From an uncultured Acidimicrobiales bacterium (lineage in GTDB: Bacteria; Actinomycetota; Acidimicrobiia; Acidimicrobiales; SHLQ01), in the NCBI GenBank assembly GCA_938041035.1, contig CALHYX010000010.1, positions 43,719-107,718 on the forward strand: a stretch of 64,000 nucleotides of DNA, given 5' to 3'. Numbering within the stretch: position 1 is the first letter of the stretch; each line of letters opens with the position of its first letter. The notes under the pieces are model-generated. The model searched no databases. It was not told the origin of the DNA and worked only from the letters and a program-made list of their open reading frames with translations. The position numbers and the translations under genes are program-made. This document shows, piece by piece, positions 1 to 52,257 of this stretch.

Positions 1-1235
1 TTCACGAAGGACAGATCCCAGTACGGACAGGTGGCGCCGCTGAGGTGGCCGTAGACGGCGGTGATCTGCTCGGGCGTCCATCCAAAGCCTCGAGCCGACG
101 CGAAGTAGCGGGTGAGCAGGCCGCAGTCGCTGATGCCGGGTTGGGTGGTGAGCCAGTCGGCGAACGGCAACGGGGCATAGATCGCGTCGAGCAGGCCGGG
201 GTAGTTCTGGGCGATGAGGAACTGCTGGATCGCACCGCCGGAACCGCCGGACCCGATCGTCAGATCGGGGGCACCGTAGCCCTCGATGAAGCGCTCCTTG
301 ACCATCATCGTGGTTTCGGCGGCGACGACATCGTTGCAGTGGGTCTGGAACGTGGTCATGGTCGAGGTGGCCAAGGCGTAACCCTGGCGCAGCAGCTCAA
401 CATCGACCGGACCACCCAGCGCCGCAGGGGTGAACCCGGCGGTGGTGAGCCCCTGACTGTAGGTCGCGCCGCATCCTCCGCTGTAGCGAAACACGAGGCG
501 GCCATTCCAGGCCGACCCGGCCCAGGGTTCGATCGTCGGCCCGAGCACCGGTTGATCGTCGAGGATGTGGATCCAGTAGATGCCCCGGTTGATCGTGCCG
601 ACCTCGTTGCGGATCACCGCGGGTACGGGTTGACCGTCGACGGTGATGGTGGCGATGTCGTCGATCTCTTCGATGGGGCGGTCGAGCGACGCGAGCCCGC
701 CTTCGGTGTTGAGGTAGGTCCAGAAGGTCTGCGTGGGAGCGCTGCAGTCGGTGTCGACCGCGCCGCCGAGCCCGTACAACGCCGTCGAGCACACGAGCGG
801 ATCGGTCTGGGGACCGGAGAACACCGGCCCGCGCCTCGGGTAGTTGACGAGGCTTTCGACGAACGTGGCCTCGTTGGAGGTGACGGCCAAGGCGTTGTTG
901 CCGAGCCCGAGCCCGGTGACCACACCTTCGAGCTCACCGCCGTCGATGACCGAGAACGCCGCGGTGACATCCTCGCCGTTGAGTTCGACGGTGGCGTCGG
1001 AGCGGGCGCCGGAGATGCGGATGCGGGCGTCGCCTCCGGTGATGCGGGTGGGGTCGCTCGAGACGACGTCGATCGTGACCTCGTCGATGTCGCCGGTCCG
1101 GGGCGCCTCGGTCGACGACGGGGGAACGACGGTCGGGGGGGTGGCTTCGTTGAGCGGGACCGGCGCGTCGGTGACACACGCGGCCGCCAGCAGGGACAGC
1201 ACGCACAAGAGCGCGGGGATTCGCCGGGCGTTCAT
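1..1235 (-). CDS. secreted lipoprotein, truncated by window edge (start at 1235, gene runs past position 1); possible hydrolase
   Basis: ATG at 1235-1233 gives MNARRIPALLCVLSLLAAAC, a signal peptide plus lipobox (LAAC). I hand-translated from 1235 down to about 900 and spot-checked a stretch near 440-480, which reads GGCGATYSQGLTT; no stops were seen. The ORF is not in the supplied track because it has no stop inside the window. Confidence 0.5.
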   Translation of the reverse strand, partial: MNARRIPALLCVLSLLAAACVTDAPVPLNEATPPTVVPPSSTEAPRTGDIDEVTIDVVSSDPTRITGGDARIRISGARSDATVELNGEDVTAAFSVIDGGELEGVVTGLGLGNNALAVTSNEATFVESLVNYPRRGPVFSGPQTDPLVCSTALYGLGGAVDTDCSAPTQTFWTYLNTEGGLASLDRPIEEIDDIATITVDGQPVPAVIRNEVGTINRGIYWIHILDDQPVLGPTIEPWAGSAWNGRLVFRYSGGCGATYSQGLTTAGFTPAALGGPVDVELLRQGYALATSTMTTFQTHCNDVVAAETTMMVKERFIEGYGAPDLTIGSGGSGGAIQQFLIAQNYPGLLDAIYAPLPFADWLTTQPGISDCGLLTRYFASARGFGWTPEQITAVYGHLSGATCPYWDLSFV

Positions 1236-1287
1236 CACCGCTGGAGGCTAGTGGTCGCCGCCCCGGGCGGGGGCCCGGGGGAGGGGA

Positions 1288-1704
1288 TCACCCGCGAAAG
1301 CCCTTGGAGATGTGTTCGATCCACCACGCCGGAGCCTGGTCCAACAGGTTCCCGAGGTGCGAATAGTCGTGCCAGCGCACGATCGACCCATCCTCGACCT
1401 CCATCACCGACGTGAACGGATGCTCGACGCGTTCGCCAGTATGAAATCGCCACTCCTCCATGTGCTCGGTGACGACGATGGAGCCCTCGGCCACCATGTG
1501 TTTGGGGTAGTGCAGGTAGTCCTCGAGGGGTTCGATGCCGAGTCGGAGCCGGGCGATGATCTCCTCGGGCCCGGTGGCGCCGGTCGCGTCGAGACCGACA
1601 TCGGTGTAATGCGCATGGGGGGCGAAGAAGGTCGCCATGGTGTCCCAGTCGCGCTGGAAGTGGGCGTCCCAGTACCGCTCTACGATCTGCCGGTTGTTCG
1701 CCAT
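1288..1704 (-). CDS. SnoaL-like / NTF2-fold protein (limonene-epoxide-hydrolase-like)
   Basis: The 138-aa product begins MANNRQIVERYWDAHFQRDWD, which is typical of SnoaL_2/NTF2-like small enzymes. It is compact, with no overlapping competitor in a coding-like frame. Confidence 0.65.
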   Translation of the reverse strand: MANNRQIVERYWDAHFQRDWDTMATFFAPHAHYTDVGLDATGATGPEEIIARLRLGIEPLEDYLHYPKHMVAEGSIVVTEHMEEWRFHTGERVEHPFTSVMEVEDGSIVRWHDYSHLGNLLDQAPAWWIEHISKGFRG

Positions 1705-1713
1705 GGGGATGTC

Positions 1714-2049
1714 CTACTTTTCCGGGTCGGTGGGATCGGTGGTCGTCGCGTCCTCGTCGGCGTCGGTGCCTATTTCGGTGCTGGTTTCGGCGTTCTCGAC
1801 CTCGGCGAGGTCGGCGTTGGCGTCGGCCTTGGCGGTGGTGGCATCGATCTTGGCGGCGATGTCGTCGAACGCGCTGCTCGAGTCGATTTCGTCCTGGATT
1901 GCGTCCATCTTCTGGTCCGGTGTCGCCTTGAGGTCACGCTCCCGAGCGGCGAGGTCGAGCCCCACGCGCTCTTTGACACCGTCCATGACGTCGCTGGCCT
2001 CGGCCGACTCCTTGGAGAACCAGCCCTTCATCTGATCGAGGAAACCCAT
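1714..2049 (-). CDS. small acidic protein, Rv0909/MT0933-type antitoxin-family-like
   Basis: 111 aa with an N-terminal MGFLDQMKGW motif resembling the MGFLDKAKD start of the mycobacterial Rv0909 family. The C-terminus is D/E/T-rich and low-complexity. Confidence 0.45.
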   Translation of the reverse strand: MGFLDQMKGWFSKESAEASDVMDGVKERVGLDLAARERDLKATPDQKMDAIQDEIDSSSAFDDIAAKIDATTAKADANADLAEVENAETSTEIGTDADEDATTTDPTDPEK

Positions 2050-2146
2050 GCGGCGACGCTAGCTCGTCGCCCCGTTCGCGGCCATGGCGTCGTCGCTCGC
2101 CGCGACCCGTTGACGGACGGGACGGGGCGGGGAACCGGAGGTTAGG

Positions 2147-3226
2147 GTGACGCACAGCGATGGCCGGGAACCCGTTCCGGGCCGAAGAGGGGAGCCCTAC
2201 ATGGCCGAGATCACGGTGCTGAGCGAATCGGTGGTAACGGTGCCCGCGACGATCGACGACGGTTCGGTGGTGATTGCCCCGGAACATCTCATCGATGCGG
2301 TCGGGTACGAACGAAAGCCGGAGGGGTTGTGTCGAGAGGACGTATGCGTCCTGGTGTCGGCGGATTCCGGGGTTGATGTCGACGGTGGCATCGACCTGAT
2401 CGCCGCCGCCGCGGCACTCGGGCGCCGCAGCCGGGTCAACGCCGAGGCTGGGGTTGTCGCCGTGGCGTTGCCGGCCGACCAGCGCCGCCAGGCCCTGCGG
2501 GACCGAGTCGCCCCCAACTTCGCGCTGCCGGATCTGCAGGGCGAGCTGCATTCGCTCGAACAGTGGCGGGGCAAGAAGAAGCTGCTCGTCGCCTTCGCGA
2601 GTTGGTGAGGTTGCATCTTTGACCTGCCCGGGTGGCAGGAACTCCACGAAGAACTGGCCGATGAGAACTTCACCGTCATCGCCGTCGCCCTCGATGAGGA
2701 TCCCGCCGCAGTCGAGCCCGCGGTGGATGGCATCACCTACCCGGTGTTGATCGACCGCGACCATCTCCTGACCGAGTTGTACGCCATCTCGAACGTCCCC
2801 ACCGTGTTGTGGATCGACGAGGAGAATCAGATCGTGCGGCCGAACATGCCCGCGGTGGGTACCGACACGTTCGTGGAGTTCTCCGGCGTGAGCCGAGGAC
2901 CGCACATGGACGCATTGCGCGCCTGGGTGCGCGAGGGCGTGGTGCCCGAGAGCGCCGCGGAGGTCGAGGTGGACGACCTCGACGACGCCGAGGTCGATGC
3001 CCGGCTCGAGTATCGGTTGGCGCTGCACCTGATGCGGGCGGGCGATGAAGAGTCGGCCCGGGCGCACTTCGATGCGGCGGGCGAGCTTGCACCCCACGAC
3101 TTCACCATTCGCCGGGCGGCGATGCCGCTAACCGGACGCGATCCGTTCGGGGAGAACTTCTTTACGTTGTGGGAGGAGTACAAGGCCGCCGGCAGCCCGT
3201 ATCACGGAGGCGTAGCCGACAAGTGA
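2147..3226 (+). CDS. thioredoxin-like TlpA/redoxin-family protein with in-frame TGA (2606-2608) at active-site position; selenoprotein candidate or pseudogene
   Basis: ORFs 2147..2608 and 2723..3226 are in the same frame with only one stop between them. The read-through product aligns continuously to the redoxin fold: ...FALPDLQGELHSLEQWRGKKKLLVAFASW-[TGA]-GCIFDLPGWQELHEELADENFTVIAVALDED...GITYPVLIDRDH...NVPTVLWIDEENQIVR. The TGA sits where the first catalytic Cys of the WCxxC motif is expected. The true start may be ATG 2201 (MAEITVL). Confidence 0.5.
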
Positions 3227-3282
3227 GTACGGAGGCGTAGCCGACAAGTAGGGACGGAGGCGTAGCCGACAAGTAGGCCCAG
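3207..3282. repeat. 24-bp direct tandem repeat x3 (acggaggcgtagccgacaagtRRg)
   Basis: The first unit encodes the last codons of the redoxin gene (GGVADK-stop). Two further near-identical copies follow in the convergent intergenic gap before the surE stop. Confidence 0.8.
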
Positions 3283-3286
3283 GCGG

Positions 3287-4135
3287 CTAGGCGAAGTGGG
3301 CGTCGAGGGCGGCCACGACATCGGCGTCGGTGCTCGCGGTCACGTCGTCGAGACGACTGAGCCAGGTGAGCGCCGCGAAGCCGTGCATGACCGCGCCGCC
3401 GTCGCTCTCGGGTGGCAGCTCTCGGGCTTCGCCCCAGTTCATCTTCACTTCGAAGGCACCCTCGTGTCCGGCTTTCGGTACGACCTCGATGCCGCCCATC
3501 TTGCGCGGCGGTTCGCTGCCGACGGGGCAGCGTTTCCATCCCTTGACCTCGTCGATTTCGACGTTGGGAACGTTGATGTTCAACACCTGGGCGTCGGCCG
3601 GGAGGTCGGCGACGAGCGCGCCGACGGCCACGGCGGCCAGGTCGGCGGCGGTATCCCAGTGTTGGTTGTCGAGGACGGGCCCCCAGCCCTGACCCTCGAC
3701 CCCCCATTGATCGACGGCCTGACTGACCGCGACCCCGCTGATGAGGCCATTGCGGGCGGTGAGGGCGGCGCCGACGGTTCCCGAGTGGTAGACCGAGCGA
3801 CCGACGTTGAGGCCCGGATTGATGCCGGAGACGACGAGGTCGATCGGGCCGCCATAGGCGCCGAGACGGCCGAACATCACGCACAGGGCGGGCGGCCCGG
3901 CGATCGCCCATGCCTCGTCGATGCCGTCGATATGGGCGGTGTGGAGTTCGGGCGCCATGTTTATGAGAGATCCGAGCGATGCGCCGCTGCCGGAGTATTC
4001 CGAGTCGGGGGCGGCGACGATGACCTCGCCGTGGGGTCGCATGGCCCGGGCGAGCACGTGCAGGCCCACCGAATCGATGCCGTCGTCGTTGGTTACCAGG
4101 ATGCGCATGGCGGTCACCGTAACCGCCTCGCTCAC
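3287..4135 (-). CDS. surE: 5'/3'-nucleotidase SurE
   Basis: Contains the canonical SurE N-terminus MRILVTNDDGIDSVGL and a DD-rich metal site. The real start may be ATG 4108 (MRILV) rather than GTG 4135. Confidence 0.85.
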   Translation of the reverse strand: MSEAVTVTAMRILVTNDDGIDSVGLHVLARAMRPHGEVIVAAPDSEYSGSGASLGSLINMAPELHTAHIDGIDEAWAIAGPPALCVMFGRLGAYGGPIDLVVSGINPGLNVGRSVYHSGTVGAALTARNGLISGVAVSQAVDQWGVEGQGWGPVLDNQHWDTAADLAAVAVGALVADLPADAQVLNINVPNVEIDEVKGWKRCPVGSEPPRKMGGIEVVPKAGHEGAFEVKMNWGEARELPPESDGGAVMHGFAALTWLSRLDDVTASTDADVVAALDAHFA

Positions 4136-4185
4136 CGATGCTCATCTGGTGGGCGTCGTCAGGCCACCGCGGCCATCATGGACCC

Positions 4186-4905
4186 ATGCCCACCGATTCC
4201 GCCCAGTACCAACTTCTCGGCGTGGACGTCGCTGACGATCCCGAAGCCTGGTCGGCTGCCGGGTTTGTCGTCGCCGATGCCCGGGTGCGCATCGGTTCGA
4301 CTGCGATCGTGCTGAACGGCGCTCACGGTCGCGACGCCCGGGCCCGCGGCATCACCGGCGTCCACATCGCCGGTCTGGCGGAATCGGCTGACCTCGATGG
4401 GCTCGCGCTCGTCGATCCCCACCGGGTCGACGGTGCCAATGATGGTGACGATGAGGTTGCCGGTCACCTACCCGAGCCCGCCGATCATCCGAACGGGATC
4501 AACGCGATCGATCACCTGGTGGTCATGACGCCCGACTGCGACCGAACCACCGCGGCGTTCGAGGCGGCCGGGTTGGAGGCTCGACGCAGCCGTCGGTTCC
4601 CGACCGGCGATCGCACCACGCGCCAGACCTTTTTCTGGCTCGGCGACGTCATTCTTGAGTTGGTGGGTGACGACGAGGCGCACGGTGAGGGCGAGCCGCA
4701 GCTGTGGGGACTGGCGTTGACCGCCCCCGACCTCGACGCCACCGTGGACCATCTCGGCGACCGCACCAGTCCGGCGAAGGATGCCGTGCAACGTGGCCGG
4801 CAGATCTCGACCATCGATGGCCGGGCCCTCGGCATCTCGGTCCCGATCGCGGTGATGTCTCCCCACCAGCGCGGGGCACCCGCCGCACCGGATTCCGGGG
4901 CGTAG
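4186..4905 (+). CDS. VOC/glyoxalase-like domain protein
   Basis: The glyoxalase-like motifs HLVVMTPDCDRTTAAFEAAGLE and TFFWLGDVILELV are present. The ATG at 4186 (MPTDSAQ) is preferred over the upstream frame start. Confidence 0.5.
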   Translation: MPTDSAQYQLLGVDVADDPEAWSAAGFVVADARVRIGSTAIVLNGAHGRDARARGITGVHIAGLAESADLDGLALVDPHRVDGANDGDDEVAGHLPEPADHPNGINAIDHLVVMTPDCDRTTAAFEAAGLEARRSRRFPTGDRTTRQTFFWLGDVILELVGDDEAHGEGEPQLWGLALTAPDLDATVDHLGDRTSPAKDAVQRGRQISTIDGRALGISVPIAVMSPHQRGAPAAPDSGA

Positions 4906-4993
4906 GTCGATCGCTCCGGCCCCGTATCCACCGCCGATTCATTTCCCGCATGGTGGGCAACCTCGGCGTCGGGCCAACTAGCATCGGAAGGCG

Positions 4994-6199
4994 ATGAGCG
5001 ACTTGCAGACGATTCTCGTTCAGGTGTCGGGACCGGACGGGCCGGGAATCTCCGCGGGCCTCCTGCGCGTACTCGACGAGGTCGGCGCCCATGTGCTCGA
5101 CATCGAGCAGGTGGTCATTCGTCGCCGCCTCACGCTCGGCATCCTCATCGCCGTCCCGCCGAACCAGGATTCGCTGAAGGAGCTCCTGTTGTACGGCTGG
5201 GAGCGGGGCCTCGACATCGACTTCGACGTGGTGGCCGACCTGCCCAGCGATCGTCCACCCGGCCACGTCGTGACCCTGCTCGGGCCCGAGCTCACCCCTG
5301 CCGAGCTGCTCGCCGCGACCGAGGCCATCGCGGCCGGCGACGGCAACATCGACCGGATTTATCGGCTGAGCAGGTACCCGGTGATGAGCTACGAACTCAC
5401 CGTGGTCGGTGGTGACCCGGCCGCGATCCGGGTAAACCTCCTCGAGGCCGCCATGCGGTATCCCGGCATGGATGTTGCCCTCCAACGCGAGGGCATCTCC
5501 CGTCGGGCGGCCCGCCTCGTCGTGCTCGACGTCGACTCGACGCTGATCCAGAACGAGGTGATCGACCTCCTGGCCGACGAAGCCGGGGTGGGCGCTGAGG
5601 TCGCGGCCATCACCGAAGCTGCCATGGCGGGTGACCTCGACTTCGAGGAGTCCCTGCGGGCCCGGGTGCGATTGCTCAACGGTCTCGACCGCGATGCCGT
5701 CGAGCGGGCGTGGTCGAACCTGACCCTGACCCCGGGCGCTCGAACGTTCGTGCGCACACTTCGCCAGCTCGGGTACACGACCGCAGTCGTGAGCGGCGGT
5801 TTCACCGTCTTCACCGACCGGCTGTGTGAGCAGCTGGGAATCACCTACTCGCGGGCCAACGAGCTCGAGTTCGTCGACGGAAAGCTGACGGGCGAACTCT
5901 GCGGACCGATCGTCGATCGGGAAATGAAGGCCAGGTTCCTGGTCGAGCTGACCGAGTTGGAGGACATCACCGTCGAGCAGGTCGTGGCCGTCGGCGACGG
6001 CGCCAACGATCTCGACATGTTGAACCTGGCCGGGCACGGTATTGCCTTCAACGCCAAACCGATCGTGCGGGAGGCGGCCGACACCGCAATCCGGGTTCCC
6101 TACCTCGACGCGGTCCTGTTTCTGCTCGGGGTGCGGCGCGCCGAGATCGAGGCCGCGGCTGACGAGGATCCGAACCTGCCGCCCCCGATCGGGGGGTAG
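4994..6199 (+). CDS. serB: phosphoserine phosphatase SerB with N-terminal ACT domains
   Basis: HAD motif I LVVLDVDSTLIQ, the GDGANDL motif, and the N-terminal tandem ACT region (MSDLQTILVQVSGPDGPGI) are present, as in the actinobacterial SerB2 type. Confidence 0.85.
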   Translation: MSDLQTILVQVSGPDGPGISAGLLRVLDEVGAHVLDIEQVVIRRRLTLGILIAVPPNQDSLKELLLYGWERGLDIDFDVVADLPSDRPPGHVVTLLGPELTPAELLAATEAIAAGDGNIDRIYRLSRYPVMSYELTVVGGDPAAIRVNLLEAAMRYPGMDVALQREGISRRAARLVVLDVDSTLIQNEVIDLLADEAGVGAEVAAITEAAMAGDLDFEESLRARVRLLNGLDRDAVERAWSNLTLTPGARTFVRTLRQLGYTTAVVSGGFTVFTDRLCEQLGITYSRANELEFVDGKLTGELCGPIVDREMKARFLVELTELEDITVEQVVAVGDGANDLDMLNLAGHGIAFNAKPIVREAADTAIRVPYLDAVLFLLGVRRAEIEAAADEDPNLPPPIGG

Positions 6200-6202
6200 T
6201 CC

Positions 6203-7048
6203 GTGGCGGACTGGCTCGATGAGCTGGAGGTGACCCCGGGGGGTCCTCCGGTGCATTACATGGGCGTTCGGGCGTTGCCCGAGGGGCACTTGCTGGTGGT
6301 CGACGACGCTCGTGACGCCGAACTCGACTTGAAGGAGCGACTGCTCGCGGCGCACCCCGACGAAATCGTGGCCATCTCACCCGATCCGGACCACCGCGTC
6401 GAGGAAGCGAGCCAGGAGTTGCTCGACGTTCTCGTGGCCGACCTCGCCACCAACCACGGCCTGGAGGTCACGGCCCGCACGGACCTCCATCCGTTGGATG
6501 CCGCCGGCCGGATCGTGCAGGAAGACCTCACGGTATTGCGGCCGGGACCCGACGGTTACGTCCTGGTGGGCGGAACGGTCTGCTTCCCCTCGGGCTGGTA
6601 CGTGCGGAAGAAGCTCGGTCACAACCTGGCCGTCATCCATGAACCGATCGAGCGTTATGGCGATGAGCTCGAGCGCAAGGTCGACCGGTTCTTCGATGCG
6701 CTCACCGTCGATCGTCCGATGTTTCGGCGCAACTGGTTCGTCTACGACAATCCGGACCGGTTCCAGCCCGCGGACCCGGTCTTGGTGGGCGCCGCCACCG
6801 ACGCTCGGCCGCTGTTTCTGCGCAGCGAGCGCGAGTGCATGTTCCGGTTGCCCCGGACCGACGCCGTGGTGTTCACGATCCGTACGCAGCAGATTTCGCT
6901 CGCCGAACTGCGGGGTCGGCCCGATGTCGCCGCCGGGCTGGCAACGTACTTTCGGGAAGGCCCGGATGTCGTGCACCGGTTGAAGGGTGTCGCCGACTTC
7001 CTCCCCGAGGTGTACCGCCAGCTCGACGCCCTGGTGACCGGTGGCTGA
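6203..7048 (+). CDS. DUF3445-like (heme-dependent oxidative N-demethylase alpha-subunit-like) hypothetical protein
   Basis: The 281-aa product shows the conserved pattern QEDLTVL...GGTVCFPSGW...IHEPIERY seen in the DUF3445 family. Confidence 0.45.
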   Translation: MADWLDELEVTPGGPPVHYMGVRALPEGHLLVVDDARDAELDLKERLLAAHPDEIVAISPDPDHRVEEASQELLDVLVADLATNHGLEVTARTDLHPLDAAGRIVQEDLTVLRPGPDGYVLVGGTVCFPSGWYVRKKLGHNLAVIHEPIERYGDELERKVDRFFDALTVDRPMFRRNWFVYDNPDRFQPADPVLVGAATDARPLFLRSERECMFRLPRTDAVVFTIRTQQISLAELRGRPDVAAGLATYFREGPDVVHRLKGVADFLPEVYRQLDALVTGG

Positions 7049-7123
7049 GCGCCGCTCACGCTGCCGGTGGGGGTGCCTGCAGTAGAGAAATCCGTGCGGC
7101 AGAGAAATCCCTGCGGTAGAGGG

Positions 7124-8308
7124 TCAGTGCAGCCGGGAGATGAGGTCGCCGCGCGAGCCGATTTCGAGGCCGCTGACCCCCACGAATTCGGCGAGTCGGT
7201 CGAGTTCGGCGCGCACCTCGGTAGCGACCTCGGCGGCGTCGATACCGGGTTCGCCATAGGCGCCGATCACGCGAAGAACGCCCGCGGCGCGGTCGGTCTT
7301 GAGATCGACGCGAGCCACCAGGTTTTCGCCCAGGAGGAACGGGAGTACGTAGTAGCCGTACCGGCGCTTGGCCTTGGGTACATAGATTTCGATGCGGTAC
7401 TCGAAGTTGAACAGCGCTTCGGCCCGCGGGCGGTTCCATACGACCGGGTCGAAGGGCGACAGGAGCGCCCGGGCCTTGACCCAGCGCGGGACTTTGGCGT
7501 CGGGACGCATGTAGCCGATGCGCTTCCAGCCTTCGATGTCGACCTCGATGAGTTGACCGTCCTCGACGAGCTCGGCGAGGCGGGCTTTCGCCGGTCTTTT
7601 CGGCAGCCGATAGTAGTCGACGAGGCATTCGGCGCTGCCCACCCCATGGGCCGTCGCCGAGCGTAGGAGAAGCTCTCGGTGCGCATCCTCTTCGGTCGGC
7701 GTGGGCTGATCGATGATCTCGGCGGGGATGATCCGATCGAGAAGGTCGAACTGCTTCTCGAATCCGGCGGTCCGGCGGATGCCGACCTCACCGATGCGAA
7801 ACAACCAATCGAGCGCCATTTGGCCGACGGATCGGCTGCCCCACCATTCACCGGAGCGAGGGCGGGGGTCGTCGAGTTCGTGGGCGTACATCGGACCGCG
7901 CTCGCGCACCTGCGCGAGCACGGAGGCGATGTAGGCGGGATCCTCACGGGCGAGGGTGACGTATCCCTTCCAGGTCTCGCCTGCTGCACTTCGCGCTCTT
8001 GCCCAGCGCAGCAGCGGTTCGTCGGCAACCGGCAGCAGCGATGCCTCGTGGGTCCACGCCTCGAACCACTCGTCGTCGCGGTAGGCGATCCGATCGAGCA
8101 GGTCGGGGTCGTACGGCCCGAGCCGGGAGAAGCCGGGCATGTACTGCGTACGGATGATGACCGGCACCGAATCGAGTTGCAGCAGGTTCAACCGCTTCAT
8201 CACCCGGCGCAGATGCCGGCGGTCGACCCGGCCCTTCGGCACCGCGTCGTTGAACCCCTGGGCGTTCAGGGCGAGTCGACGGGCCTGGGACTGTGTGAGC
8301 GACTCCAT
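7124..8308 (-). CDS. winged-helix DNA-binding protein, YcaQ/AlkZ-like (DUF1006) DNA glycosylase family
   Basis: The sequence from MESLTQSQARRLALNAQGF onward is the typical YcaQ-family N-terminus. The upstream 28 aa of the track ORF are probably not translated. Confidence 0.6.
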   Translation of the reverse strand: MESLTQSQARRLALNAQGFNDAVPKGRVDRRHLRRVMKRLNLLQLDSVPVIIRTQYMPGFSRLGPYDPDLLDRIAYRDDEWFEAWTHEASLLPVADEPLLRWARARSAAGETWKGYVTLAREDPAYIASVLAQVRERGPMYAHELDDPRPRSGEWWGSRSVGQMALDWLFRIGEVGIRRTAGFEKQFDLLDRIIPAEIIDQPTPTEEDAHRELLLRSATAHGVGSAECLVDYYRLPKRPAKARLAELVEDGQLIEVDIEGWKRIGYMRPDAKVPRWVKARALLSPFDPVVWNRPRAEALFNFEYRIEIYVPKAKRRYGYYVLPFLLGENLVARVDLKTDRAAGVLRVIGAYGEPGIDAAEVATEVRAELDRLAEFVGVSGLEIGSRGDLISRLH

Positions 8309-20012: not shown

Positions 20013-20084
20013 CCTCAGGTTCGAATCGAAAACCAGCCATGACCAACCCACTAGAACAACCAACTACGGGAGACGCACACCCCA

Positions 20085-22238
<2,154 letters not shown>

Positions 22239-32315: not shown

Positions 32316-34352
32316 ATGACGATCCTGTCTGTTGTCCTCGTCTTGATAGTCATCCTCGTCGCCGTGGCCATGCTGGTCGCGCTGATGTTCAGCCGATTGT
32401 TCCGCAAGGTCCCCCAGGGCAAAGCGCTCGTCGTGAGTACGATGAACAAGGTCGTGGTGTCGTTCACCGGCCAGATCGTGCTGCCCGTCATCCACAAGGC
32501 CGAGATCATGGACACCTCGGTCAAGACGATCGAGATCGACCGGCGCGGCGCGGAGGGCCTGATCTGTCAGGACAACATCCGGGCCGACATCAAGGTGAAC
32601 TTCTTCGTGCGGGTCAACAACGCCGAGGAGGACGTCATCAAGGTTGCCCAGGCCATCGGCGTCGACCGGGCCAGCCAGCAGGAGACGCTCGAAGAGCTGT
32701 TCACCGCCAAGTTCTCCGAGGCGCTCAAGACCGTGGGTAAGCGGCTCGACTTCATCGACCTGTACACCGAACGCCGCCGTTTCCGCGACGAGATCATCGA
32801 GGTCATCGGGACCGACCTCAACGGCTACGTGCTCGAAGACGCCGCCATCGACTACCTCGAGCAGACACCGCTGATGCAGCTCGACGACACCAACATCCTC
32901 GACGCCCAGGGCATCCGCAAGATCACCGAGCTGACCGCCACCGAACACGTGGCCACCAACGTGGCGAGCCGCGAAGAGGAAAAGCAGATCACCGCCAAGG
33001 ACGTCGAGACCCGGGAAGCGGTGCTCGAACTGCATCGCCAGCAGGCCGACGCCGAAGCCCGCCAGGCTCGCGAGATCGCCACCATGCAGGCCCGCGAACA
33101 GGCCGAAACCATGAAGGTGCAGGCCGAGGAGCGGCTGCGGGCCGAGACCGCCCGGCTCACCATGGAGCAAGATGTCGGCGTGCAGCAGGAGAACCTGCAG
33201 CGCGAGGTCGAGGTCGCCGAGAAGAATCGCCAGCGCATCATCGCCATCGAAGAGGAACGGGTGAAGAAGGCCCGCGAACTCGAGGAGATCTCCCGCGAAC
33301 TCGAAACCACCGGCGCCCAGAAGAGTCTGGAATCCGAGCGGGCGGCCGTCGCCGAGATCGTGCGCAATCGCACGGCCGTCGACAAGACCGTCGCCGAGGA
33401 GGAGGAAGCGATCGCCACCCTGCGCGTGGTCGAGGAGGCCACCCGTAACCGCGACGCCACCGTGATCGCCGCCGAGGCCGAGGCCGAGGGTGCGTTCGTG
33501 AAGGACATCAAGGCCGCCGAGGCCGCCGAAAAGGCCGCCCAGCATCGCGCCACCGAACGGGTCACCGTGGCCAAGGCCGATCTCGAAGCAAGCGACCTCG
33601 ACGCCAAGGCGATGGCTCGCCTGGCCGAGGGTGCCCAGGCCGAAGCGGCCGCTTCGGGTCTCGCCGAGGTGCAGGTGCGCGAGGCCGACGCCATCGCCAT
33701 CGAAAAGGTTGGCCTCGCCGAGGTGCGGGTCAAAGAAGCCGATGCAGGAGCCACCCAGAAGGAAGGCGCCGCCGAAGCGTCGGTGGTGCGCGAGATGGGC
33801 CTCGCCGAGGCCGAGTCGGCCGAAGCCAAACTGCGGGGCGAGGCAGCCGGTCTCACCGACAAGGCCGCGGCCATGCGCGAGCTCGAAGGGGTGGGCCAGG
33901 AGTTCGAGGAATTCACCCGCCGGCTCGAAGCCCAGAAAGAGGTCGACCTCGCCAAGGTTGGCGCCCAGGTCGGCATTGCCAACGCCCAGGCCGACGCCCT
34001 CAAGGCCGGTCTCGAGAGTGCGGACATCGACATCGTCGGTGGGTCCGACATCTTCGTCGACCGTCTCGTCGGCGCGGTGGCGGGCGGCAAGTCCGTCGAT
34101 GCCTTCGTCGAGAATTCCGGCACCACCAACAAGGTGTTCGGTAAGTATCTCGACGGCGATGGCGACCTCGTCGCCGACCTCACCGAGCTCGCCGCCGGAG
34201 TGGGCGGCAACGGCGTGCGCGACCTCACCATCTCGGCGTTCCTCGCCCAGATGATGCGGTCGTCGAGCGGCGAGAACGCCGGCAAGCTCAACAACATCAT
34301 CGAAGCGGTTGCCCGAGAAGGCATCGGCGACCTGCCGATCGGCGAGCTGTAA
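32316..34352 (+). CDS. flotillin-like SPFH/band-7 protein (YqiK/FloT family)
   Basis: An N-terminal TM helix is followed by the SPFH domain (GKALVVSTMNKVVVSFTGQIVLPVIHKAEIMDTSVKTIEID...) and a long EA-rich coiled-coil with flotillin-type AEAEA repeats. The start may alternatively be GTG 32283. Confidence 0.8.
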   Translation: MTILSVVLVLIVILVAVAMLVALMFSRLFRKVPQGKALVVSTMNKVVVSFTGQIVLPVIHKAEIMDTSVKTIEIDRRGAEGLICQDNIRADIKVNFFVRVNNAEEDVIKVAQAIGVDRASQQETLEELFTAKFSEALKTVGKRLDFIDLYTERRRFRDEIIEVIGTDLNGYVLEDAAIDYLEQTPLMQLDDTNILDAQGIRKITELTATEHVATNVASREEEKQITAKDVETREAVLELHRQQADAEARQAREIATMQAREQAETMKVQAEERLRAETARLTMEQDVGVQQENLQREVEVAEKNRQRIIAIEEERVKKARELEEISRELETTGAQKSLESERAAVAEIVRNRTAVDKTVAEEEEAIATLRVVEEATRNRDATVIAAEAEAEGAFVKDIKAAEAAEKAAQHRATERVTVAKADLEASDLDAKAMARLAEGAQAEAAASGLAEVQVREADAIAIEKVGLAEVRVKEADAGATQKEGAAEASVVREMGLAEAESAEAKLRGEAAGLTDKAAAMRELEGVGQEFEEFTRRLEAQKEVDLAKVGAQVGIANAQADALKAGLESADIDIVGGSDIFVDRLVGAVAGGKSVDAFVENSGTTNKVFGKYLDGDGDLVADLTELAAGVGGNGVRDLTISAFLAQMMRSSSGENAGKLNNIIEAVAREGIGDLPIGEL

Positions 34353-34366
34353 GGCCGGTTCGGTCG

Positions 34367-37300
34367 TGACCGATACCGAGACACCAAGCGATCAGGTGGT
34401 CGACACCGCCGACGCGGCCGGCGTGACCGACGATGCCGTCGGCGCGGGCACCTATGACCTGCTCCGCGCTCGCCTCGTCGAGCACGCCGACGAGTTGGGT
34501 CGGCGCGCCAATCAGCTCAACCTCGACCGCCTCGAAACGTTCGGTACCAGCCGGTTCGAGTTGGTCGGCAGCGAGCGGATCCGCACGGAGAACAACTGTG
34601 TGTCGCGCGACATCGTCGCCGTCGGCGACCAGATGTTGTTCGGCTACAACGTGTTCATCGGCCTGCGGACCGAGACGACGATCGACGATGTGCTCAGCCT
34701 GCATCGGCTCGAACGCACGGGTGGCGCCGACGCCGACGATGGCGGCGCCCCTGCGGCCTACGCCCTTTCCCCGCTCTCCGAGGCGAGTGAAAGCGAGGCC
34801 ACCGCCTGGCTGCACGACCCGGGCTTCCTCAATGACTTCCGCGAGCTCACGACCTACTACAAGGACTACAAACTTCTGCAGCTGCGCCGTTCCGGCGGCC
34901 GGCTGCTCGCCGTGTTCCAGATCGGCAAGTCGATCGACGACATCCGGGTGTTTCGCTGGGACGTGAGCCCCGATGGGGTGGCGAGTTACCGCGACAACCG
35001 GGGCGAGCGGGATCACGATTACCCGCCTCAGTTTGGTTTCACCTGGCAGTCGGTCACCCGGGAACATCACGTGGGTGGACGCAACCCGCACGTGAACCTC
35101 GTCGACAAGGTGTTCCTCGATCCGCGGGGCGGCAAGCTCGAAATCCGGCTCGAGGACAACACCGAGACCGGGTTGCTCGTATTGAGCGAGCCGGTGGAGA
35201 ACCCCGACCAATCGGTCGACGACACCTCGATGGCCTTCGCGGTGATCGGCGACCTGGTGCTGGTGCGGGTGCGCCCGTATCTCGAACAGGACGACCGCTA
35301 CTACGTCGTGAACCTGTTCAACCGGTCGGCCCTACGCGTCGACGCCATCGGCCAGTCGTGCCAGATCCTGCCCGAGGACCACGGGGTGATCTTTCCCGGC
35401 GGCTACTACCTGCGCGAGGGCGACACCAAGGTGTTCGACCTCGACACGACCGGTATGGAATTCAAGGTCGAGATCCGGTCGCCGAACGGCGAGGACGTGC
35501 TGTACGCGTTCCACGAACGCGATGGCGGCCGCACGATTCTGCTCAGCTACAACCTGATCCGACGCCATGTCGCCGCGCCGATCAACTGCCACGGCTACAG
35601 CCTGTTCGAGGACGGCACCCTGGTGGTGTTCCGCGACAGCGGCGAGCCCACTCGGGTGCACCCGATGCAGATCTGGGCCACCCCGTTCGTGAGCGATGAG
35701 TTTCAGGCCCGCCAGCCGCTCGGCGACGGCCTGCTCGAGCGCATCGGCAACGCCGAGCTGGTTCGAGGCGTCAGCGAGGCGTTGAACATTCGGCGCCTCG
35801 TCGCCGACGTCGAACCCTCGGGCGCCGTTTTCGAAGACCTCGCGACCAGCACCGTGCGGGTGCTCGATGCCCACACGTGGCTGGTCGACGATGGCGCCGG
35901 CGATCTCGCAGCACCGCTGCGCGAGATTCGGGCGACGTCGGAGCTCATCATCGATGAGTTCGACAAGGCCGAGGCGCTCAAGGCCACCGCCATCGAGGTC
36001 GCCGAGAGCGCCACGAACGACATCGATGAGCTGGTCGATGGCATCCGGCAGAACCGACCGGCCACCACCCAGGCATTCGTCGATGCGTTGCAGCAACTCC
36101 GCCGCCAGCAGGGCCACCTCCTCACGATTCGCGACACCCGGTACATCGATCACGGCCGGCTCGACGCCCTCGATCAGCAGGTGCAGGAATCGTTCGACGA
36201 TCTCTCGGCGAACGCGGTCGACTTCCTCGCGGCCGACACCGCCTTTGCGGGCTTTCACACCGACGTCGAACAGCTGACCGCGACCATCGAGGCGACCGAG
36301 AAGGTCACCGAGGTGGAGCCGCACCTCGAAACGCTGGACGACATCGGGTCGGGCCTCGACCTGCTCGCCGAGGTCGTGGGCGGTCTCGAGATCGACGACG
36401 CCACCGTCCGCACGGGCATCTTCGAACGGGTATCCGGGGTGATGGGGGCGTTGAACCGCACGCGGGCCGTGGCCGAAAACCACCGATCGCGCCTGCGCGA
36501 TTCCGAGAGCAGCGCGGCCTTCGGCGTGGAGTTCGGCCTGTTCTCGCAGTCGGTCACCGCAGAATTGAGCCGCTCGACCTCGCCGGAGAAGGCCGATGCC
36601 GCCCTCGGCACACTGCTCGTGCAGCTCGAGAACCTCGAGAGTCGCTTCGGCGATTCCGACGACTACCTCGACCAGATCGCCACAAAACGCGAGGACGTCT
36701 ACGAGGCGTTCTCCTCGCGCAAGCAAACCCTGATCGACGACCGGCAGAGCTCGGCTCGTCGACTCGTCGACGCCGCCGATCGCATCCTCACCAGCGTCAA
36801 TCGACGCGTCGAGGGGTTCGAGTCGGCCGACGAGATCAACGCCTTCTTCGTGAGCGACCCGCTCGTGGCCAAGGTGCGCTCGATCGCCGGTGACCTCCGC
36901 GACCTCGACGAGCAGGTACGCGCCGACGAGATGCTACGCAACCTCGATACCGCCAAGGAAGAGGCCGCCCGATCGCTGCGCGACCGCACCGACATCTTCG
37001 AGGACGGTGGCCAGGTCATCCGCCTCGGCCGGCACCGGTTCAGCGTCGACAGCCAACGGCTCGAACTCACCACTGCCGCGATCGATGGTCACCTCAACGT
37101 GGTGATCACCGGAACCGACTTCCGGGAGGAGGTTCGTGCGGACCACTACCCCGAGATCGACCTCGACGAGCTGCGCCCGTTCTGGGACCAGACGCTGGTG
37201 TCCGAGCGACCGGACTTCAGCCGTATCGAGTACCTCGCCACCACGATCCTCGCCGGCGCCGCCGACGGAACGGGGCCGGTGACGTTCGCCGACCTGCGAG

Positions 37301-39510
37301 CGGCCGCCGGGAGCCCGCAGCAACTCGAAACCCTGGTCCGGTCAATCGCCGAGCAGCGGGTCGAAGAGGGCTACGACCGCGGGGTCCACGATCACGATGT
37401 GGCGTTGCTGCTCGGCGTTCTGGTCTCGCGCTGGGATGAGATTGGCCTGCTTCGCTACGAGCCCGATGCTCGAGCGCTGGCTCAGATCTTCTGGGCCCAC
37501 GGGCTCGACGATGAGATCGCCCGCGACCTCCTCGCCCGCGGTGTGAGCCTGGGCCGGTTGCGTTCGACGTTCGCCAGGTCGCCGGCCATCGCCGACTTCG
37601 TCGCCGACCTCCAGGCACGCATCGAGGCCTTCGTCGCCGACCGTCCCACGGTGGGCGACGGTGTCGACCCGGCCGCGACCGCCGGGTATCTGTTCGAGGA
37701 GCTGGCTGAGGAACCGCTCGCCTTCGTGGTCAGCAGCGCGGCGTCGGACCTACGCGACGCGCTCCGCCTGCACCACGACACCGTCGGCATCGATGCAACC
37801 GTGGCCGAACTGGACGACCTGGTCGACCGGCATCGGCTCCTGACCGCCTGGTTCAACGCCTTCGCCGAGGCGGAGCGCCCCGAAGCACTCGCCTACGTGC
37901 CCGAAGCGGTTGCGCTCGTCGTGGCCGACGGGCTTCCGCACCAGGCCGGAGCGGTGGACCTCACCTGCGAGGTGTCGAATCTGCTCAGCCAGCACGGACG
38001 CATCTCGGACCAGACGCTGCGGTTTCGCTACGACGAGCTCATGGCCGCGGGCGACGCCTACCGCCGCACGGTTGTGCCCGGGTTCCGCGAGTACCAGACC
38101 ACTCGACACCGGCTGTTGGCTGAGGCTCGCGACCGGCTGCGCCTCGACGAGTTCACCCCGAAGGTGATGAGCGCCTTCGTGCGCAATCAGCTGATCGACC
38201 AGGTCTATCTGCCGCTGATCGGCGACAACCTCGCCAAACAGCTCGGCACGGTCGACGGCGGTCGCACCGACCAGATGGGGCTCCTGCTGCTCATCTCGCC
38301 CCCGGGTTACGGCAAGACCACGCTCATGGAATACGTGGCCAACCGGCTCGGCATGGTTTTCGTCAAGGTGAACGGGCCGGCGCTCGGCCACGGCGTCGAT
38401 TCGCTCGACCCGACCGAGGCGCCGAACGCTACGGCCGCCCAGGAGGTCGACAAGATCAACTTCGCCCTCGAGATGGGTAGCAACGTCTTGCTGTACCTCG
38501 ACGACATCCAGCACACGAACCCCGAGTTGCTGCAGAAGTTCATCTCGATGTCGGATGCTCAGCGCCGAATGGAGGGAGTCTGGAACGGGCGGACCCGCAC
38601 CTATGACCTGCGGGGCAAGCGGTTTGCGGTCTGCATGGCCGGCAACCCCTACACCGAGTCCGGCGATCGCTTCCAGATCCCCGACATGCTCGCCAACCGC
38701 GCCGACACCTACAACCTGGGCGATGTGTTGACCGGCAACGACGGTCTGTTCGCGCTCAGTTATCTGGAGAACTCGCTCACGTCGAACCCGGCGCTCGCGG
38801 CGCTCACGACACGCGATCAGGCCGACACGCTGAAGCTGATCGGCATGGCCCGGGGCGACAGCGTGTCGCCCGACGACCTGAGCCACCCGTATTCGGCGGT
38901 CGAGATCGACGAACTGGTCGCGACCTTCACCCGGCTGATCCGGGTGCAGGAGATCCTGCTGGCGGTCAACCAGACCTACATTTCGTCGGCCTCTCAGGAG
39001 GACGAGTTCCGTACGGAACCTCGCTTCCAGCTCCAGGGTTCGTACCGCAACATGAACCGGTTGGCCGAGAAGGTTCTGCCGGTGATGAGCCCCGAGGAGA
39101 TCGAGGCGCTCGTCGACGACCACTACTCGGGCGAGGCGCAGACCCTGACGACGGGAGCTGAGGCGAACCTGTTGAAGTTGGCCGAGCTGCGCGGCGTGAT
39201 GACCGATGAGCAAACCGAGCGCTGGGACGAGATCCGGGCGGCGTATCAGCGGGTCAAGTTGATGGGCGGCTCCGAGGACGACCCGATGGTTCGCGTCGCC
39301 GGAGCGGTCAGCGGTATCTCGGACCAGCTCCGGTCGATGGCGCAGCGCAGCGGACCGGATGCGGTCGACGTGCTGGCCCGCTTCGATGAGACGCTCCGCC
39401 TGCTCACCGACCGGGCCGAGCGCCGCCGCACCGCAGCGGCACCCAAGCAGCCGAGCCCGCGACCAACCCGGCGATCCACGCTGGCCCCGCCGCCACCCCC
39501 ACCCGAATAG
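34367..39510 (+). CDS. giant (~1715 aa) protein with single AAA_5 (MoxR/midasin-type) ATPase module near C-terminal third and a ~1250-aa N-terminal region with no motifs I can assign
   Basis: Walker A LLLISPPGYGKTTLMEY at about aa 1310, Walker B VLLYLDDIQ, sensor/arginine region CMAGNPYTESGDRFQIPDMLANRADTY. There is only a 14-nt gap after the flotillin stop, so the gene is presumably co-transcribed with NfeD and flotillin. The GTG start at 34367 has AAGG 11 nt upstream. Confidence 0.7.
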
Positions 39511-49783: not shown

Positions 49784-49956
49784 TCCCGCCGCTCCATCCA
49801 TCGCCCTCGATTGGGTGATCGTCGATGCCGTCACCGTCCCCGGTGGCGGCATCGTCGCGTCCGGGGCGAACCACCGGTTCTGACAGGTCGACGGCCTTTC
49901 GGGTAGCAAGGAGCACACGGGGACCGCCAGGGGAGATAGGGGAGACCGGGGGAGAC

Positions 49957-52257
49957 ATGGCCATCGCCGAGGACGAGACCACCAGCGACCAGACCACCAG
50001 CGACCAGACGACCACCGAGACGCATACGCGCACCTGTCCGCTGTGTGAAGCGATGTGCGGACTGCGCATCACCGTGGAAGCCGGTCAGCAGGTGAAGCTG
50101 ATCCGGGCCAACCAGGACGACGTGTGGAGCAAGGGCTATCTGTGCCCCAAAGGCACAACCCTCGGACACATGCATCACGACCCGGATCGGTTGACCATGC
50201 CGATGATCCGTACGGGCGATTCCTGGCGCGAAGCAACGTGGCCGGAGGCGTTCGCCGAATGCGAGCGGCTAATCCGGGGCGTCGTCGAGACCCACGGCAA
50301 AGAGGCGTTCACGGCCTACATCGGCAACCCGACGGTGCACAACTACTCGCTGTCGCGTTACGTGGGCGCCTTCACCGGCATGTCGGGCATCTCACCCATC
50401 TACTCGGCCGGCACGGTCGACCAATGGCCCAAGAACGTCTCGTCGGCGTTGCTGTACGGCAATCCGTGGGTCATCCCGACCCCGGATCTGGATCGCACCG
50501 ACATGCTCGTGATCATGGGCGCGAACCCCCAGGCGTCGCAGGGCAGTCTGCTCGCCGCCGCCGATGTACTCGGCCGCTGCGACGCGATTCGCGAGCGCGG
50601 TGGCACGGTGGTCGTCGTCGACCCCCGCCGCACGGGCACCGTCGATCACGCCGATGAGTGGCTGCCGATTCGCCCCGGTACCGACGCGGCGTTGTTGCTC
50701 GCCGTCATCAACGTCTTCGCCGCCGACGAACTGATCGACCTCGGCCGGATGGCCGAGTTTGTCGACGGGGTGGACGTCGTCGTGGCGGCCGCGGCCGACT
50801 TCACGCCGGAGGCGGTAGCCGAGACCTGCGCCATCCCCGCCGACCGCATCCGCCGCCTCGCCCATCAGCTGGCCGAGGCACCGACGTCGGTCGTGTATGG
50901 CCGGATCGGCACCTGCAACCAGGAGTTCGGCTCGTTGGCGTCGTGGCTGGTCGACGTGGTGAACATGTTGACCGGAAACTTCGACCGACCCGGAGGACTG
51001 ATGTTCTCCAGTCCGATGACCGAGCCGCTGGCCCATCTCCCTCGACCATCGCAGAACGGACCGGATGGGCGGGCGGCGTTCGGCCGGTGGACCAGCCGGG
51101 TTCGCGGTGCTCCCGAAGTGCTCGGCCAGGTCCCCGTGTCCTGCATGGCCGAGGAGATCGATACGCCGGGCGAGGGTCAGCTGCATGGCTTGATCACCAT
51201 CGCCGGCAACCCGGTGCTGTCGGCGCCGGAGTCGGCCCGCCTGGCTCAGGCACTCCCGATGCTCGACTGCATGATCAGCATCGACAACTGGCTGAACGAG
51301 ACGACGAAGCACGCCCACGTGATCCTGCCCGGCCAGGGGCACCTCGAACAGTCCCACTGTGACGAGATGATCTGGTCGTGGGCCATCCGGAACGCAGCGA
51401 AGTGGTCGCCCGCGTTGTTTCCGCCGCCCGACGATCACCCGCGCGAATGGGAGGTGTTGTTGACGGTCGCCGGATTGTTCATGGGGGCGGCGGCCGACGA
51501 GATCGATACCGCACTCCTCGACGACCTGTTCTTCGGCGGCGTGGTGGGCACGGTCGTGGCCGAGCCCACGTCGCCGATCCACGGTCGCGACCAGGCCGAG
51601 ATCGTGGCGGCCACGCCGGGACGGGGACCCGATCGGTTGGCGGACTTCTCGATCCGGCGTGGGGTGCACGGCGACCACTACGGGGCCAACCCCGATGGTT
51701 GGACGTTGGCCCGGCTCCAGGAGCATCCCGATGGCGTGGACCTGGGACCACTCGAGTCACGGCTGCCGGAGTTGTTGCAGACTCCGGACGGCCGAATCGA
51801 CATCGCCCCTGCCTACCTGCTGGCCGACCTCCCGCGCCTGCGCGCCCGCTTGGGTCGCTCCGAGGACGGGTTGGTCCTGGTGAGCCGCCGCCATCTCCGG
51901 TCGAACAACTCCTGGATGCACAACATCAAGGTTTTGGTGAAGGGGAAGGATCGTTGCACCTTGATGATCCACCCGGACGACGCCGAGGCGGCGGGGGTCA
52001 CCGCAGGTGCGAAGGCTCGGGTCAGTTCAGAGTCGGGCGAGGTGGAGATACCGGTGGAGGTCACCGATGAAATGATGCCCGGCGTGGTCAGCCTGCCCCA
52101 CGGGTGGGGCCATGATGTCGAGGGCACCCGGTTGTCGGTCGCTCGTGAACATGCGGGCGTGAACAGCAACCTGTTGGCCCCGGGCCACCTGGTCGACCCG
52201 TTGTCGGGCAACGCGATCGTGAACGGGATTCCGGTGGAGGTCACCCCCGCCGGTTAG
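49957..52257 (+). CDS. molybdopterin-dependent oxidoreductase, formate-dehydrogenase-like catalytic subunit (MopB superfamily), no selenocysteine codon
   Basis: An N-terminal 4Fe-4S motif (CPLCEAMCGL...CPKG) is followed by molybdopterin-binding segments (VIMGANPQASQG, TVVVVDPRRTG). The 766-aa ORF is continuous. Confidence 0.75.
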   Translation: MAIAEDETTSDQTTSDQTTTETHTRTCPLCEAMCGLRITVEAGQQVKLIRANQDDVWSKGYLCPKGTTLGHMHHDPDRLTMPMIRTGDSWREATWPEAFAECERLIRGVVETHGKEAFTAYIGNPTVHNYSLSRYVGAFTGMSGISPIYSAGTVDQWPKNVSSALLYGNPWVIPTPDLDRTDMLVIMGANPQASQGSLLAAADVLGRCDAIRERGGTVVVVDPRRTGTVDHADEWLPIRPGTDAALLLAVINVFAADELIDLGRMAEFVDGVDVVVAAAADFTPEAVAETCAIPADRIRRLAHQLAEAPTSVVYGRIGTCNQEFGSLASWLVDVVNMLTGNFDRPGGLMFSSPMTEPLAHLPRPSQNGPDGRAAFGRWTSRVRGAPEVLGQVPVSCMAEEIDTPGEGQLHGLITIAGNPVLSAPESARLAQALPMLDCMISIDNWLNETTKHAHVILPGQGHLEQSHCDEMIWSWAIRNAAKWSPALFPPPDDHPREWEVLLTVAGLFMGAAADEIDTALLDDLFFGGVVGTVVAEPTSPIHGRDQAEIVAATPGRGPDRLADFSIRRGVHGDHYGANPDGWTLARLQEHPDGVDLGPLESRLPELLQTPDGRIDIAPAYLLADLPRLRARLGRSEDGLVLVSRRHLRSNNSWMHNIKVLVKGKDRCTLMIHPDDAEAAGVTAGAKARVSSESGEVEIPVEVTDEMMPGVVSLPHGWGHDVEGTRLSVAREHAGVNSNLLAPGHLVDPLSGNAIVNGIPVEVTPAG

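Follow-up and report, generated by a model that had tools for sequence, protein, structure and literature searches.

An in-frame TGA at the U-G-C site of a Prx-like/TlpA-like gene from an uncultured Acidimicrobiales bacterium very probably encodes selenocysteine

Can a gene that is split by a TGA codon at its catalytic centre be read as one intact unit? The question is raised by a 64,000-nucleotide stretch of DNA from an uncultured Acidimicrobiales bacterium (assembly GCA_938041035.1, contig CALHYX010000010.1, positions 43,719 to 107,718 of the forward strand), analysed here at its full length and referred to as the window, in which two open reading frames (ORFs), 2147..2608 and 2723..3226, belong to one thioredoxin-fold gene and are separated by a single TGA. 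A preliminary description of this locus had offered two readings, a selenoprotein candidate or a recent pseudogene. The former is upheld and the latter is not, in view of orthologs with the same TGA, a hairpin of the kind found in selenocysteine (Sec)-type homologs and a published family. We consider it very likely, on sequence grounds, that 2201-3226 constitutes an intact gene for a 341-residue selenoprotein of the UGC-containing Prx-like/TlpA-like thiol-disulfide oxidoreductase family, where U denotes Sec.

Translation of 2147-3226 in a single frame yields 360 codons with the TGA at 2606-2608 as the sole internal stop, congruent with the proposed common frame of the two ORFs, and the G+C content at third codon positions (GC3) is high on both sides of it, 0.80 upstream and 0.84 downstream. 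The true start is most likely the ATG given in Table 1, with which the product, previously estimated at about 38 kDa, becomes one of 341 residues and approximately 37.1 kDa, carrying Sec at residue 136. Downstream of the TGA, all 58 family-invariant residues in the alignment are kept in the window protein, and no second disabling mutation was detected in the gene, with both these residues and the GC3 signal intact. The same TGA is found in the Logan assembly of run ERR9287622, possibly derived from the same reads as the window, which is 99.96% identical to window positions 1-2641, with the one mismatch in 2641 nt lying away from the TGA. A scan of 1950-3400 for promoters and terminators returned nothing.

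We then turn to the homologs. A protein search recovered 992 of them, the best being 346-residue proteins of Acidimicrobiia/Acidimicrobiales metagenome-assembled genomes (MAGs), aligning over their full length at 50-61% identity. Alignments of 29 and 52 homologs agree on the site consensus F-[AS]-S-W-C-G-C-R-Y-D-L-P-G-W-Q, in which C136, G137 and C138 are invariant. The TGA aligns with C136 of this W-C-G-C, so that its assignment to the first redox-active Cys is borne out. The accompanying caution, that U-G-C is one residue shorter than the canonical CxxC, falls because C-G-C is the native motif here, with the TGA standing in for its first Cys; this is the spacing of the family itself, invariant in the 52 full-length homologs. 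Likewise, the uninterrupted thioredoxin-fold alignment expected upon read-through is recovered, both in the full-length alignment of homologs and in the Pfam matches to Redoxin and AhpC-TSA.

Aligning orthologs at this codon had also been proposed, and at least 119 species genomes carry TGA there, with Cys in other homologs. The former were retrieved by scanning 185,579 species-representative genomes with the pattern TGA-GGN-TGY-N6-GAN-YTN-CCN-GGN-TGG-CA, which presets the C138 codon of the Sec-type matches as TGY. The matches listed include Acidimicrobiia (Ilumatobacter, Microthrixaceae), Acidobacteriota, deltaproteobacteria, Chloroflexi, Planctomycetia and Alphaproteobacteria, and all of them (at least 119) display an open homologous frame on both sides of the TGA, of the form ...[WFY]-[AS]-[SPT]-[WY]-U-G-C-x-x-D-L-P-G-W-Q.... 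Among the matches listed, the closest Sec-type orthologs (L035, L049 and L119) are 56-59% identical over their full length, and the best nucleotide identity to the window is about 72-77% at most; the nearest Cys-type homologs, at 58-60% identity, are as close as the nearest Sec-type ones among these matches. An Acidimicrobiales contig, L086, is syntenic with the window, with DUF6351 and SnoaL-like genes upstream, and carries the same TGA at about 70% nucleotide identity. In a neighbour-joining tree without support values, the window is placed beside a Sec-type clade and most Cys-type homologs form one nested clade, hinting, if only suggestively, at Sec being ancestral to the Cys forms.

The hairpin proposed downstream of the TGA (2623-2639, loop CGGGU) is confirmed. 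It has a 6-bp stem, is encoded by the codons of D-L-P-G-W-Q-E, and folds as the dominant structure at -9.3 kcal/mol, with the stem starting 14 nt and the loop 20 nt downstream of the UGA. The geometry had been judged close to that of a bacterial selenocysteine insertion sequence (bSECIS). The Zhang & Gladyshev model, as conveyed in passages of PMC13188914, describes a small apical loop in which a G precedes another G or a U, and a minimum free energy of -7.5 kcal/mol or lower; with its loop of 5 nt, where positions 2 and 3 are both G, its 6-bp stem and its 20-nt spacing, the window element satisfies the bSECIS criteria. No Rfam family matched the window at the gathering threshold.

The evidence for the hairpin comes from comparing 113 distinct Sec-type sequences among the matches listed, all from genomes, with 96 distinct Cys-type sequences recovered by scanning metagenomes with the pattern in its TGY version. 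At the Leu and Pro codons of the stem the two sets differ in their third bases (Table 1), and the same holds within the F[AS][ST]W subfamily to which the window belongs (25 of the 113 Sec-type sequences): Leu ends in G in 25/25 Sec-type against 52/91 Cys-type members, and Pro is CCG in 0/25 against 52/91. Among the Sec-type sequences the Leu codon changes in step with the Gln codon, with 98 CUG/CAG, 12 UUG/CAA and two UUG/CAG combinations and one mismatch, and the closing pair covaries as well (C-G 69, U-A 30, U-G 7), enclosing loops of CGGGU (57/113) or A-GGN-U (49/113). Across the Sec-type alignment 91.7% of cells are paired, and 42 cells show double-sided changes, a number reached by none of 500 shuffles, with slid-partner controls all performing worse. 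RNAalifold, supplied with the 113 sequences, returned the same 6-bp consensus hairpin and no conserved lower stem. The energy limit of -7.5 kcal/mol is passed by 86% of Sec-type but 47% of Cys-type sequences. The 15-mer of the window, CTGCCCGGGTGGCAG, is the commonest Sec-type form (55/113, as compared to 7/96 in the Cys-type set). A Phe four residues past the TGA codon (U-G-C-I-F), present in the window as F140, occurs in about half of the Sec-type and 0/96 of the Cys-type sequences. As judged from these comparisons, the hairpin is under selection at synonymous sites in Sec-type and not in Cys-type homologs, being kept, as it would appear, by the choice of Leu CUG/UUG, Pro CCC/CCA, Gly GGG/GGU and Gln CAG/CAA codons. 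By the known biology of bacterial SECIS elements and SelB, a ribosome reaching the UGA would find SelB with Sec-tRNA(Sec) bound to the hairpin, and SelB would then insert Sec in place of termination.

Table 1. Elements assigned to the putative selenoprotein gene (window positions), and codon usage at two positions of the hairpin stem
Feature	Position	Strand	Remarks
Selenoprotein gene (very probable)	2201..3226	+	341 codons plus TGA stop; Sec at codon 136
Shine-Dalgarno-like GGGGAG	2189..2194	+	6 nt 5' of ATG 2201; read from sequence, putative function
ATG start (MAEITV...)	2201	+	agrees with N-termini of homologs; preceded by GGGGAG
C44 (TGT 2330-2332) and C49 (TGC 2345-2347)	2330..2347	+	CxxxxC pair of the N-terminal domain; invariant in 52 homologs
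Redoxin (ResA/TlpA/DsbE-like thioredoxin-fold) domain	2510..2839	+	residues about 104-213
UGA, read as selenocysteine U136	2606..2608	+	site of the nucleophilic Cys, directly ahead of helix alpha-1
TGC for C138, presumed resolving Cys of U-G-C	2612..2614	+	invariant in Cys-type homologs
Putative bacterial SECIS core hairpin	2623..2639	+	CCUGCC 2623-2628 / GGCAGG 2634-2639, loop CGGGU
Leu codon, third base G			113/113 Sec-type, 57/96 Cys-type; p=3.5e-16
Pro codon CCG			6/113 Sec-type, 54/96 Cys-type; p=7e-17

In the protein itself, residues 103-213 match Redoxin (PF08534, 53.4 bits) and AhpC-TSA (PF00578, 50.5 bits), both over the cut-off, and a weak TPR signal is detected by Pfam in the C-terminal part. 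The site reads ...LLVAFASW-U-GCIFDLPGWQELHEELADENF..., with W-U-G-C at residues 135-138, and the protein contains four Cys/Sec residues in all: C44, C49, U136 and C138. An AlphaFold model of the Cys ortholog P0001, 60% identical to the window protein, was obtained with high scores (pLDDT 92.8, pTM 0.91) and displays three domains, a beta-rich N-terminal one, a thioredoxin-fold core and a helical C-terminal one, with C-G-C immediately preceding helix 137-151; going by this model, the window protein would share the three-domain layout. By inspection, the N-terminus (MAEITVLSESVVTVPATIDDG) holds no hydrophobic stretch, and because it lacks an obvious hydrophobic anchor a cytoplasmic location is probable, in contrast to classical TlpA/ResA. 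Some Acidobacteriota members such as L036 start with a signal-like segment.

U136 would accordingly lie at the N-terminal end of helix alpha-1 in a ResA/TlpA-type fold, the usual site of the nucleophilic Cys of CxxC, from where it could attack a substrate disulfide or an oxidant. By thioredoxin-fold chemistry, C138 would resolve the intermediate, generating a strained selenenylsulfide across U-G-C, and the U-G-C centre may be recycled by the C44/C49 pair, for which we infer a redox role, or by a thioredoxin-type partner. Redox motifs of the CXC type, known from CGC peptides that mimic protein disulfide isomerase and from the CGC of Erv2, generally behave in a more oxidising or isomerase-like way than CxxC. 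The window motif resembles these in having two redox-active chalcogens around a single Gly, in a strained small ring, but is embedded in a thioredoxin fold and has Sec in the first position. At the other end of the gene, a 25-nt unit (ACGGAGGCGTAGCCGACAAGTAGGG; 93% matches) occurs three times in tandem over 3204-3277, the first copy encoding the terminal GGVADK and the TGA stop and the second and third carrying TAG. This duplication seems to have reshaped the C-terminus, since homologs end in ...HGLSATSALS instead.

How does the gene relate to known families? The best NCBIfam match is NF041054.1 (WAxxUGC_long, ResA-like WAxxUGC motif-containing protein, equivalog; E=3e-57), which shares the U-G-C site and a similar total length, and covers, with profile positions 8-203 of 354, the N-terminal and the redoxin domain, leaving the C-terminal domain of the window protein unmatched in the best stretch. 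Members with WAPY/WASW-UGC pass the trusted cut-off of 300 bits of this model (L024 with 456, L048 with 329 and L036 with 317), whereas relatives from the clade of the window stay below it (the Sec-type L119 with 199.6 and the Cys-type P0001 with 234). The motifs differ too, F-A-S-W-U-G-C in the window against W-A-x-x-U-G-C, with F replacing the first W. As far as sequence can tell, the window's clade is a sister group. A literature search for 'WAxxUGC' gave no match. The Global Ocean Sampling (GOS) selenoproteome of 2008 (PMC2398784), in the passages available, describes a 'Prx-like (UGC-containing)' family (pfam00578, UGC motif) with 46 Sec and 855 Cys sequences, commoner in non-marine samples. 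With that family, so described, the window shares the AhpC-TSA/Redoxin fold, Sec in U-G-C and many Cys homologs. Passages of the 2008 study and of a 2026 review describe the family at catalogue level; our comparison was made with these descriptions, leaving aside the review's example MDE0950781.1. The three-domain architecture, the SECIS encoded by LPGWQ and the split between WAPY/WASW-UGC and F[AS][ST]W-UGC go beyond those passages. Since the kind has been both published (GOS 2008) and curated (NF041054), it is already known, and the gene joins a known selenoprotein family as a new member that is not annotated as such, rather than representing a new class of system.

Among more distant systems, a thioredoxin fold of the type of ResA, TlpA, DsbE(CcmG) and StoA is seen in the model of the P0001 ortholog, but only about 114-150 residues align, at 20-30% identity; the window has U-G-C, of CXC spacing, in place of their CxxC, two extra domains of approximately 100-120 residues each are present, and inspection of the window protein reveals no signal peptide or membrane anchor such as would be expected of these extracytoplasmic oxidoreductases. 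The PxxxT/SxxC motif of peroxiredoxins (AhpC/TSA, BCP) is not matched, U136 being preceded by L-V-A-F-A-S-W with neither Thr/Ser at -3 nor Pro at -7. On the RNA side, the hairpin is similar to the SECIS of E. coli fdhF and fdnG in being a stem-loop directly 3' of the UGA inside the coding region with a small apical loop. However, conservation is limited to a short stem of 6-7 bp, with no conserved lower stem or bulged U detected, and the sequence is unrelated to that of fdhF.

In two Acidimicrobiia MAGs, members of the family are encoded directly next to the Sec machinery. In L024 (Acidimicrobiia, 1535-7258) the order is UGC gene, selA, selB, selD and tRNA-Sec, and in L113 (Acidimicrobiia, 731-6302) it is tRNA-Sec, selD, selB, selA and UGC gene, together with a second UGC paralog on a single 8-kb contig; SelA, SelB and SelD of both are over the NCBIfam cut-offs. 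A different neighbour is seen in L014 (2435-3794) and L094 (5322-6681), where the UGC gene is adjoined by homologs, 66-67% identical in nucleotides, of window ORF 43200-44588, which is amidase-like by its GGSSGGS motif; within the window this ORF and the UGC gene are 40 kb apart.

Several observations weigh against a selenoprotein at this locus. ARAGORN detected no tRNA, hence no tRNA-Sec, in the 64-kb window; selA, selB and selD are absent among its 20 size-compatible ORFs in NCBIfam and Pfam scans; and no other coding frame in the 64 kb is interrupted by TGA, the remaining same-frame junctions being ordinary gene ends. The window protein, with Cys substituted for Sec, reaches 194.5 bits against the NF041054 trusted cut-off of 300. 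Folds of 2600-2670 and 2606-2650 are no better than those of shuffles (z about 0), and because of this single-sequence stability was set aside as evidence and comparative tests were used. Conserved amino acids partly dictate the core pairs of the hairpin; the stem is made from D-L-P-G-W-Q-x codons and was therefore tested at free positions. The two sets compared differ in origin, genomes and metagenomes, with a mean GC3 of 0.76 for Sec-type and 0.90 for Cys-type sequences; given their higher GC, the latter would if anything be expected to show more CUG and stronger hairpins. The window sits on a long branch of the neighbour-joining tree, which is without support values, and the catalytic mechanism and partner are proposed by analogy. 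One caution of the preliminary description, that a formate-dehydrogenase-like molybdoenzyme in the window has no TGA, turned out to be uninformative: ORF 49819-52257 is not diagnosable as a formate dehydrogenase, reaching 200 of the 666 bits required for Fdh-alpha and giving comparable partial matches to thiosulfate, nitrate and dimethyl sulfoxide reductases, and is by these matches a generic molybdopterin oxidoreductase.

Could the TGA then mark a recent pseudogene, a Cys-type gene mutated to TGA with a non-functional product truncated at 135 residues? TGC or TGT is a single-base change away from TGA, Cys-type homologs abound in the same class, public gene calls give two ORFs at the locus and, as stated, the window shows no Sec machinery. 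The window 15-mer and F140 are however Sec-type signatures, rare or absent in Cys-type genes; the listed Sec-type relatives of the F[AS][ST]W subfamily all show the same codon pattern, and the tree, lacking support values as it does, groups the window with Sec-type sequences. The TGA appears to be old, because the syntenic ortholog L086 shares it, and the 58 invariant residues and the GC3 signal remain intact downstream with no second disabling mutation. We therefore regard a pseudogene as quite improbable. A sequencing or assembly error at 2606-2608, with TGC or TGT as the true codon, is more improbable still, to the point of being negligible: one wrong base would suffice and the source is a metagenome-type assembly, but the identical TGA and context recur in the Logan assembly (possibly from the same reads), the codon is TGA in at least 119 further genomes, and the surrounding synonymous sites follow the Sec-type pattern.

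The UGA might instead be decoded in another way, by near-cognate read-through as Trp or Cys, by Cys insertion via tRNA-Sec at scarce selenium, or with the gene split into two polypeptides. Insertion of Cys for Sec under selenium limitation is known for some selenoproteins, and translation could restart at GTG 2723. Against this, there is no genome-wide reassignment of UGA, since TGA ends ordinary genes in the window, and Sec is suggested by the linkage seen between family members and selABD plus tRNA-Sec. Two polypeptides parting at residue 135 would sever the thioredoxin fold immediately ahead of the active-site helix, as gauged from the ortholog model, and the segment separating the TGA from GTG 2723, residues 137-174, keeps the frame and shows strong conservation. 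These alternatives strike us as very remote, if somewhat less so than a sequencing error, leaving insertion of Sec at U136 as the favored explanation.

Elsewhere in the window, 20055-22238 encodes a two-domain haem peroxidase of about 727 residues (PF00141, E=2e-66, two stretches) with the size and layout of a catalase-peroxidase. The 336-residue ORF at 44601-45611 ends, over its C-terminal third, in a long highly basic Lys/Ala-rich repeat (KKTAAKKTAAKK...), resembling the histone-H1/HU-like tails of actinobacterial nucleoid proteins. Two very large ORFs, 34255-39510 and 59795-63355, with about 1750 and 1186 codons, respectively, show a strong coding signal.

The public protein collection illustrates how such genes are lost from view. 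For one NCBI/ENA contig of 107,718 bp it holds two products, P0121 (135 residues, 2201-2605, ending at the TGA) and P0127 (167 residues, from GTG 2723 to 3226). Because the ORFs are split in this manner and the NF041054 cut-off is not reached, many Acidimicrobiia MAGs are likely to list members wrongly as pseudogenes or truncated genes, and given the 300-bit cut-off a whole Acidimicrobiia subfamily may escape selenoprotein annotation. The codon signature recovered here, Leu NUG, Pro CCC/CCA, Gly GGG/GGU and a Gln CAR matching the Leu codon, separates Sec-type from Cys-type genes.

Combining these threads, we tentatively picture the F[AS][ST]W-U-G-C clade as a distinct three-domain, probably cytoplasmic Acidimicrobiia subfamily that models and gene callers have missed, in which Sec is ancestral and Cys derived and the C44/C49 pair forms an internal redox relay to U-G-C, a combination that we hold to be possible but on the whole rather doubtful. 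As a part of it, RNA element and protein motif would constrain each other, since the SECIS is written in the codons of the invariant D-L-P-G-W-Q. If true, this would be a self-contained enzyme for selenosulfide/disulfide exchange. For the family, the gene illustrates clearly how a SECIS can be embedded in a conserved active-site motif and adds an instance of Sec/Cys interchange at a CXC redox centre. For the Acidimicrobiia, the data suggest that selenium use is common, with the UGC family sometimes adjoining the Sec machinery.

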